Source of the DNA: a virus | Reading direction: 5' to 3' (one strand) | Length of the DNA stretch: 64,000 nucleotides | IMG/VR virus record: IMGVR_UViG_3300035682_000005 | Part shown: one piece after another, positions 11,909 through 12,345 of the stretch | How the letters are laid out: every line of letters begins with the position of its first letter | How positions within the stretch are numbered: position 1 is the first letter of the stretch | Notes under the pieces: generated by a model | Told to the model about the DNA's origin: nothing | What the model saw: only the letters and a program-made list of their open reading frames with translations | Database searches by the model: none | Translations under genes and position numbers: made by a program

Positions 11909-12238
11909 ATGATGGTGAACTATAATATGTGCAAGCGTGTTTTATTTTGGGCGGTTTGTTTGTGTGTTGCACAAATTCTTGATGGTGTTCTCACATATTT
12001 GGGAATGACAAGGTTTGGGGTTAATGCTGAAGGTAACGTTCTACTTCATACGCTAATGAATTACATGGGTGTTGCTCAGGCACTTCTGACTGTAAAATTG
12101 CTTTCCATATATGTGGTTGTGTTTTTGTGTTGTCGTGACATTAGTGAAAGATGGTTGCGTGTTGCATTTAAGAGCATTACCATTTTCTATTTTATCTTTG
12201 CAATCTGCCCATGGACTCTTATGCTTATAATAGGATAA
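11909..12238 (+). CDS. membrane protein (DUF5658-like)
   Basis: LDGVLTYLG...EGN motif; three hydrophobic segments. Confidence 0.65.
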   Translation: MMVNYNMCKRVLFWAVCLCVAQILDGVLTYLGMTRFGVNAEGNVLLHTLMNYMGVAQALLTVKLLSIYVVVFLCCRDISERWLRVAFKSITIFYFIFAICPWTLMLIIG

Positions 12239-12247
12239 ATACTGTTT

Positions 12248-12345
12248 GAACTGATTGCTAGGGAGTGTTTTTGCCGTTTCCTGCTACGAATTTGACTCTG
12301 AAGTAGAACGGTGCCAAGAGTCAAAAGCAATCAGTTCTTTTTTTA
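12248..12345 (+). ncRNA. candidate pseudoknotted small RNA ending in a U-tract
   Basis: 12-bp GAACTGATTGCT/AGCAATCAGTTC; GCCGTT/AACGGT; CTAC/GTAG; 9-bp TTTGACTCT/AGAGTCAAA; ATAAATA at 12235. Confidence 0.55.

Follow-up and report, generated by a model that had tools for sequence, protein, structure and literature searches.

We analysed a 64,000-nucleotide stretch of viral DNA (IMG/VR record IMGVR_UViG_3300035682_000005, hereafter the window) and describe here a small RNA encoded at about 12248-12344 on its plus strand. The RNA is almost certainly a member of CyVA-1 (Rfam RF02965) that folds as a three-way junction in which two hairpins, P2 and P3, stand on a closing helix, P1, with their loops joined by a true pseudoknot. 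On balance we favour the view that it is a stand-alone late small RNA which acts in trans through a conserved three-dimensional fold. The phage is T4-like, encoding a gp5-type baseplate hub and lysozyme, a baseplate wedge subunit, a gp59-type helicase loader and an RNase H-type exonuclease.

Family membership and fold of the RNA

CyVA-1 was the sole Rfam match of this region in a scan of the whole window, at 12255-12330 (plus strand), scoring 45.6 bits where the gathering threshold is 41.4; the match spans the full model (positions 1-77), with E = 3.8e-7 over 64 kb and E = 2.4e-9 in a local scan. P1, P2 and P3 align to the structure line of the model, an outer stem with two hairpins, and the conserved CyVA-1 loops (GUUUU.CCGUU and GAAG.AGA.CG..GUCA), whose columns are at least 95% conserved among 96 family members, are present in the window as UUUUUGCCGUUU and GAAGUAGAACGGUGCCA. 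The family was described by Weinberg et al. in 2017, with an average length of 78 nucleotides (nt), is curated in Rfam as an sRNA, and its transcript is reported from cyanobacteria in a halite metatranscriptome (PMC5737381; bioRxiv 10.1101/761684). An earlier interpretation made from the letters alone (the sequence-only reading) had named a novel ribozyme among the possibilities; the RNA is instead a phage-borne copy of an orphan family that is already catalogued.

The window RNA shares with the CyVA-1 archetype the three-stem layout, the U-run followed by YCGUU in the first loop and GAAG..GAACG..GYCA in the second, and its core of ~77-80 nt matches the published average. It differs in lying in a T4-like phage rather than in a bacterial chromosome, in a P1 extended to 12 base pairs (bp) and then U7, in a weak P2 (one mismatch and two wobbles), and in scoring 45.6 bits where a cyanobacterial archetype scores 88.5. 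Phage, Acidobacteriota, Planctomycetota, Verrucomicrobiota and cyanobacterial copies were all retrieved with one pattern and one model, leaving no gap between the phage RNAs and the archetypes, and several phage relatives likewise score above the Rfam cut-off. Nearest to the phage-type core are copies in metagenome-assembled genomes of a member of the Gemmataceae (locus L059, 83%) and of the Planctomycetia (L096, 81%).

Direct reading of the window recovered every sequence feature that the sequence-only reading had listed, among them the perfect 12-bp P1 helix with its adjoining T-run (Table 1). The set of pairs that it gave as a pseudoknot also stands, but the roles are exchanged: the 9-bp pairing that it regarded as the pseudoknot is the ordinary stem P3, and the GCCGTT/AACGGT "hairpin" is the loop-loop contact. 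This contact comprises five Watson-Crick pairs and one G-U, giving a pseudoknot of 6 bp, or up to 8 bp if flanking U-G pairs are counted. The pairs of P2 are, in order, a G-A mismatch, A-U, G-C, U-G and G-U. Two further helices of the sequence-only reading, CTAC (12284-12287) with GTAG (12303-12306) and AGGGA (12260-12264) with TTCCT (12278-12282), are present in the window but pair in 50% of cells across the family against 48% in shuffles, and we do not retain them. The structure exceeds chance expectation by three measures, the Rfam E-value, the covariation among homologues described below and the minimum free energy, which for a 107-nt stretch comes to -33.4 kcal/mol (z = -3.5 relative to dinucleotide shuffles; of 200 such shuffles 1 was equally stable).

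Homologues were obtained by several routes. With the nucleotidyltransferase (NTase) encoded downstream as query, three related viral contigs were found, two of which (L042 and L043) have the RNA, and in both the sequences of P1 and P3 are wholly different from those of the window yet complementary. Two initial pattern scans of IMG/VR returned chance matches only, with no CyVA-1 recognised by Rfam in the first set or in the 20 loci of the second that were checked. A third, family-aware pattern built from the conserved loops was successful, retrieving 14 stretches in IMG/VR, at least 120 metagenome contigs and at least 120 species genomes, the last mostly Acidobacteriota/Terriglobales together with cyanobacteria, Planctomycetota, Verrucomicrobiota and Thermoanaerobaculia. 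An alignment of 125 relatives (A2) gave a covariance model (R1), which matches the window once, at this RNA, with 75.7 bits and E = 1.9e-18, and from which 96 matches were realigned (A3); nine phage-type copies were aligned separately (A6). The region also gave nulls: positions 11000-13500 had no DNA match among isolate phage genomes in near or distant mode, and the protein encoded upstream, which carries a DUF5658 domain, led to no related viral loci.

Both alignments support the helices. In A3 the share of paired cells is 80%, compared with 58% for shuffles, with a covariation score of 0.578 against 0.20 and slid controls all at or below 0.20; P1 and P3 covary, as do all 5 pairs of P2, and the pseudoknot is paired in 97.5% of cells. 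Two of its pairs covary, one distributed as AU 49, GC 34, GU 8 and other 3, the second as CG 60, UA 18, UG 5 and other 11. These pairings were not forced by the search pattern, because the positions concerned had been left as N, Y or R. Among the nine phage-type copies 94.4% of cells pair (74.7% in shuffles), the covariation score is 0.743 against 0.29, and slid controls do not exceed 0.184. Here P1 is 95.4% paired with two-sided changes in 11 of 12 pairs, P3 is 97.5% paired with such changes in 9 of 9, P2 shows A-U/G-C exchanges at 2 pairs, and the pseudoknot is paired throughout (100%). The sequence-only reading had held that its case would fail were the 9-bp pairing not conserved in homologues; every phage homologue has kept that pairing through compensatory changes, so the proposal of a discrete, highly structured RNA, predicted at ~90-97 nt and with a genuine internal pseudoknot, survives the comparison. 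From phages to Acidobacteriota and cyanobacteria P1 and P3 vary freely in sequence while the inner loops and the pseudoknot are kept, and the conserved positions are loop nucleotides within or flanking the pseudoknot, not a variable-target seed.

A compact, pseudoknotted RNA with invariant nucleotides might be a self-cleaving ribozyme, as the sequence-only reading had suggested, and a three-way junction with a loop-loop contact does resemble the hammerhead layout. There is also a sub-threshold Hammerhead_HH9 match nearby in the genome (14073-14147, plus strand; 23.4 bits against a cut-off of 52, E = 0.0013 locally), absent from the whole-window gathering scan. The Rfam search that this suggestion called for speaks against it: a permissive cmscan of 12100-12500 with Rfam 15 matched no riboswitch and no ribozyme family (among them hammerhead, HDV, twister, pistol and hatchet) at E ≤ 10, returning besides CyVA-1 only two chance-level matches, to a pestivirus untranslated region and to mir-329. 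In addition, the invariant bases lie in the loops and not in a junction core, and Rfam classes the family as an sRNA, so that we consider self-cleavage very improbable.

Table 1 Positions of the RNA, its structural elements and the adjoining genes in the window
Feature	Position	Strand	Basis and remarks
ATAAATA	12235-12241	+	Direct reading; T4-type late-promoter-like -10 motif, NATAAATA form; putative promoter
CyVA-1 small RNA, predicted, ~97 nt, P1 to end of U-tract	12248-12344	+	Rfam and model R1; predicted ends
P1 5' strand, GAACTGATTGCT	12248-12259	+	Pairs with 12326-12337; 12 bp, perfect
P2 5' strand	12263-12267	+	Pairs with 12282-12286; placed by homology to the Rfam model
Pseudoknot strand GCCGTT, in P2 loop	12273-12278	+	Pairs with AACGGT, 12307-12312
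P2 3' strand	12282-12286	+	Pairs with 12263-12267
P3 5' strand, TTTGACTCT	12291-12299	+	Perfect complement of 12317-12325; 9 bp
Pseudoknot strand AACGGT, in P3 loop	12307-12312	+	Conserved unpaired GAAG..G and G.YCA on its flanks
P3 3' strand, AGAGTCAAA	12317-12325	+	Pairs with 12291-12299
P1 3' strand, AGCAATCAGTTC	12326-12337	+	Perfect reverse complement of 12248-12259
T7 tract directly 3' of P1	12338-12344	+	Putative intrinsic termination site
Transfer-messenger RNA (tmRNA) gene of the phage, one-piece	11437-11836	+	Rfam RF00023, 59.3 bits against a cut-off of 47; CCA end encoded
Open reading frame (ORF) of 71 amino acids (aa), N-terminal hydrophobic segment, Cys-rich C-terminus	12357-12572	+	ORF list; context
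Pol-beta-fold NTase gene	12575-13438	+	Pfam PF18765; context

The late-promoter-like motif and the predicted ends of the RNA

The late promoter of T4 consists of an 8-bp TATA box, lies about one helical turn ahead of the start and lacks a -35 element (PMC2988020); it takes the form NATAAATA in T4-like cyanophages (PMC2984593). Just upstream of P1 the window has GATAAATA at 12234-12241, with G at the first position. A comparison of eight T4-like loci (the window, L042, L043, L054, L301, L046, L048 and L052) shows that [A/C]TAAATA ends 25-27 nt before the U-run (TTTT) of the P2 loop in all of them, that is 4-6 nt before P1. This offset is kept whether the upstream neighbour is a protein gene, a tmRNA 3' end or a divergent gene, and the sequence-only reading's late-promoter motif thus gains the backing of a conserved position, as a candidate promoter.

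The motif resembles T4-type late promoters (TATAAATA, or the cyanophage form) in its [A/C]TAAATA core and the lack of a -35 element, and a T4-like distance to the start would put the 5' end of the RNA at about 12247-12248, where P1 begins. In the window it also precedes baseplate-hub and other late-type genes. Of the 15 copies of ATAAATA in the window 11 lie at gene boundaries, all 11 directed at the next gene or RNA, and the genes so preceded include the gp5-like hub gene, baseplate-region genes and tRNA-Asp. It departs from the T4 pattern in that the first position is not T and that several other copies in the window have an ATG as close as 6-8 nt, a spacing uncommon in T4. Such copies, as listed together, are at 23212-23218 (minus strand) and at 39210-39216, 41931-41937, 43844-43850, 63314-63320 and 50966-50972 (plus strand), one copy of the list lying instead 7 nt upstream of tRNA-Asp; with T4 spacing they would give leaderless or near-leaderless late transcripts, which are unusual for T4-like phages. 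No homologue of gp55 was found in the window, in a search that covered part of the ORFs only.

At its 3' end the RNA resembles an intrinsic (Rho-independent) terminator, in that a helix containing G+C is followed at once by a U-tract (12326-12344). It is unlike one in that the helix closes a conserved, structured 66-nt domain and in that the U-tract is absent from most family members. Among the phage copies the T-run after P1 is strong in the window (T7), L052 (T7) and L048 (T5) and weak in L042 and L043. Our terminator scan did not list 12338-12344, because the enclosed "loop" is 66 nt long. P1 and U7 would probably end most transcripts, with some read-through into the Cys-rich ORF and the NTase gene being possible.

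Could the whole element be no more than an elaborate terminator, or an RNA-stabilising end, of the upstream DUF5658 gene or of the tmRNA unit, and otherwise functionless? P1 and T7 come 10 nt after the upstream stop codon, as such an end might. Most copies, on the other hand, have no T-run, a promoter-like motif separates the upstream gene from the RNA, and the inner loops and pseudoknot have been preserved across phages, Acidobacteriota and cyanobacteria, in contrast to the freely changing sequences of P1 and P3. A terminator without further function is very improbable.

Neighbouring genes in phages and bacteria

The RNA is independent of its neighbouring genes, although in the phages nearest to the window it has recurrent company. 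The order tmRNA, (small gene), CyVA-1, (small Cys-rich ORF), NTase is common to the window, L042, L043, L054 and L301. A tmRNA upstream of CyVA-1 was also found in L042, L043 and L054; for L301 it is deduced by eye from an identical tmRNA 3'-end sequence, with the CCA end, ~25 nt before the motif. The window tmRNA gene is preceded by a sigma-70-like promoter match (TTGAAT-17-TATATT, 11398-11426), and its tag frame, read by eye from the alignment, is ANFDANAYSLAA. An unrelated viral contig, L051 (1967-2346), has a permuted two-piece tmRNA (RF04321, 74.4 bits) followed by a terminator-like hairpin and, 86 nt downstream, by CyVA-1, which makes a second, independent adjacency of the two RNAs. No tmRNA was seen in five further phage records with CyVA-1, among which is a complete 145-kb genome. 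Group I introns (RF00028) were seen within a few kb of CyVA-1 in two other viral contigs (L056, 4110-4313; L057, 2373-2554).

The small Cys-rich ORF (CGDGTCQ...C...GC.C) is conserved in three phages, namely the window, L042 (2161-2382) and L043 (3787-4014), and has no family match; it is absent from L054 and L301, and L041 has a 37-aa hydrophobic ORF in its place. Searches of PHROGs, Pfam and PDB sequences with the neighbouring phage ORFs were mostly empty. The NTase represents an abundant gene family of uncultured phages, with 444 relatives in IMG/VR viral contigs (loci L298-L377 among them); tblastn against ~50,000 isolate phage genomes gave no match to it, and neither did PHROGs or PDB sequences. 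An AlphaFold model (mean pLDDT 71) gave matches to generic minimal nucleotidyltransferases only, all with E > 0.001. CyVA-1 lies beside this gene only in the six nearest relatives, the window included, and ~70 more distant relatives are without the RNA.

Two of the related loci serve as natural comparators. L041 is the closest relative of the window (its NTase is 85% identical) and has retained the tmRNA along with the DUF5658 gene, GGATAAATAC and the NTase, yet the whole RNA is cleanly absent (L041 3543-4000) and the 37-aa ORF begins 4 nt after the motif; L041 is thus a natural deletion comparator. In L052 the RNA stands isolated, the upstream gene being divergent, the NTase orthologue (43% identity) convergent, and a convergent 53-aa hydrophobic ORF (10998-11159) ending at a T7/A7 stretch shared with the RNA. 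Downstream of the RNA in L046 and L048 lie unrelated genes.

Bacterial copies point the same way. Of five carrier genomes checked, four contain one copy each and one contains three; 14 model genomes checked have none. Clustering of the neighbours of 240 loci found no shared gene family and no neighbour gene common to more than 32 of the 240, with Pfam assigning the representatives to BON, response regulator, WXXGXW or POR, or to nothing; such neighbours as do recur are unremarkable or lack a known function. A same-strand downstream ORF with a Shine-Dalgarno-like motif was present within 250 nt for 62 of 180 bacterial copies and, when the control orientation was counted, for 61 of 180. Since copies are few, share no common neighbour and show no excess of downstream ORFs, the bacterial pattern is that of a free-standing RNA gene and not of a 5' regulatory leader. 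In the class of one acidobacterial carrier 6 of 101 sampled genomes matched, a figure that says little on prevalence as only ~41 of ~1000 candidates per genome were scored.

Two side observations concern the surroundings of the bacterial copies. Cyanobacterial loci (L061 ~3780-3870; also L065, L071 and L078) have another conserved element ~30 nt 3' of CyVA-1, consisting of a hairpin, GTGGAG-TTTTTGTCGCTTC-CTCCAC, and then conserved sequence including CAGAACGG; it has no Rfam match and might represent a diverged paralogue or belong to a longer RNA. In many Acidobacteriota (L067, L068, L069, L079, L081, L082, L087 and L090) a convergent ORF with a hydrophobic C-terminus ends ~15-25 nt after CyVA-1, an arrangement paralleled by the convergent 53-aa ORF of L052.

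The main rival to a trans-acting RNA is a cis-acting 5' leader or attenuator, in which the late promoter would drive an operon of the small membrane/Cys-rich ORF and the NTase gene, the fold would sense a ligand or protein, and P1 with the U-tract would set read-through. Compact pseudoknotted junctions with invariant loop bases are typical of aptamers. The RNA lies between motif and operon in the window, L042 and L043, and in L054 and L301 its 3' end comes ~11-16 nt ahead of the NTase ATG. In L041 the distance from ATAAATA to the small ORF is 4 nt, a placement in which the motif is able to serve the operon. A precedent is known from phage Melnitz and its relatives, where a glutamine riboswitch adjoins a two-piece ssrA (tmRNA) gene (PMC9004378); like the window RNA, that riboswitch is a small pseudoknotted RNA next to the tmRNA gene of a T4-like myophage. 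That riboswitch belongs to another RNA family, the glnA and Downstream-peptide models giving no match in 12100-12500 at E ≤ 10, and the window RNA differs further in lying downstream of the tmRNA with a promoter-like motif of its own.

Against a leader, the RNA of L052 has no co-oriented downstream gene, the genes following it in L046 and L048 are unrelated, and both L041 and the ~70 NTase relatives do without it. Bacterial copies, as shown above, have neither an excess of same-strand downstream ORFs nor a common neighbour, no riboswitch family matched at E ≤ 10, and no alternative (anti-terminator) pairing is conserved, CTAC/GTAG and AGGGA/TTCCT both failing in this respect. The sequence-only reading's proposal of a switch for the Cys-rich and NTase genes is weakened by the lone RNA of L052, the operon of L041 without RNA, the distant NTase relatives and the lack of a downstream-gene preference in bacteria, and we hold a leader to be unlikely, if the strongest of the competing explanations.

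Next among these comes a functional tie to the neighbours, in which the RNA would work with the tmRNA, in ribosome rescue or translation, or as substrate or guide of the NTase, the three forming a tmRNA-CyVA-1-NTase module. The tmRNA directly upstream in the window, L042, L043 and L054, its 3'-end sequence in L301, the permuted tmRNA 86 nt upstream in the unrelated L051, and the NTase orthologue that adjoins CyVA-1 in six phages, including the inverted arrangement of L052, would all fit. RNA genes, however, cluster in phage genomes regardless; the five phage records mentioned above show no tmRNA, L041 has tmRNA and NTase but no CyVA-1, and only the few nearest of the 444 NTase relatives have the RNA. 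The fold of the NTase is generic, with no PDB match at E ≤ 0.001. ARAGORN found no tmRNA beside bacterial copies, a weak negative since it also misses the tmRNAs of the window and its relatives. We regard such a module as improbable, and give no greater weight to its broader form, a phage "RNA toolkit" tied to translation rescue or to RNA 3'-end modification.

The sequence-only reading had also compared the RNA with pseudoknotted antitoxin mimics. Type III antitoxin RNAs form a tandem array of short repeats beside a toxin gene. The window RNA shares with these ToxI-like pseudoknots a pseudoknotted fold, small size and a phage-related context, and small hydrophobic ORFs lie nearby (12357-12572 in the window, the convergent 53-aa ORF of L052 and the convergent small ORFs of Acidobacteriota). 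It differs in having no tandem repeat array, the covariance model search finding a single copy in the window, and no conserved toxin family adjacent, the neighbouring ORFs matching no toxin family; the family is a low-copy chromosomal RNA whose sequence is conserved across phyla whatever the neighbours. A decoy that neutralises a toxin protein is therefore a very remote prospect, on a par with the ribozyme and the simple terminator.

Proposed action in trans and what it would mean

The reading of the RNA as a stand-alone, trans-acting molecule is favoured because its invariant bases are loop bases embedded in structure, its helices vary freely, its chromosomal copy number is low and it is associated with no particular gene. 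In this T4-like phage it would be a small transcription unit of its own, with ATAAATA placing the predicted start at the first base of P1. The pseudoknot would lock a compact shape displaying the invariant unpaired bases, namely the U-run of the P2 loop before the pseudoknot strand and GAAG..G and G.YCA of the P3 loop, and through this fold the RNA would bind a conserved partner in the cell, either a protein or perhaps a small ligand. In this way a phage-encoded copy might supply, or hijack, the CyVA-1 function of the host late in infection.

Several observations weigh against this reading. Both ends of the RNA are predictions from sequence. ATAAATA is not enriched in the window by raw count (15 copies against 12.5 expected); it overlaps the upstream stop codon, the TAA (12236-12238) that ends the ORF at 11909-12238, so that its conservation in this lineage alone could be partly a coding constraint, and L041 keeps it without the RNA. 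As a terminator hairpin, a 12-bp helix around a 66-nt insert is non-canonical, and 3 of the 8 phage copies (L046, L054 and L301) have no T-run after P1. In L054 and L301 the closeness of the RNA to the NTase start codon resembles that of a 5' leader. Finally, the RNA stays beside an NTase orthologue despite the inversion in L052, and beside the tmRNA, a possible functional tie that a stand-alone RNA leaves unexplained.

CyVA-1 has been catalogued since 2017 as an orphan RNA of several bacterial phyla, and we found no experimental study of its function. That T4-like and several unrelated phages carry it implies that its partner must be worth manipulating during infection. The phage copies also lend themselves to experiment: the late-type motif exactly at the 5' end of P1 in the T4-like copies predicts precise, easily testable RNA ends, the two-sided covariation of the loop-loop pseudoknot gives clean mutant and rescue designs, and L041, without the RNA, and L052, with the RNA as an isolated unit, are comparators provided by nature. 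Were the RNA to act with the tmRNA or the NTase, it would constitute a new kind of phage RNA module, and the toolkit reading, if true, would provide the first functional handle on an orphan RNA of Acidobacteriota, Planctomycetota, Verrucomicrobiota and cyanobacteria.

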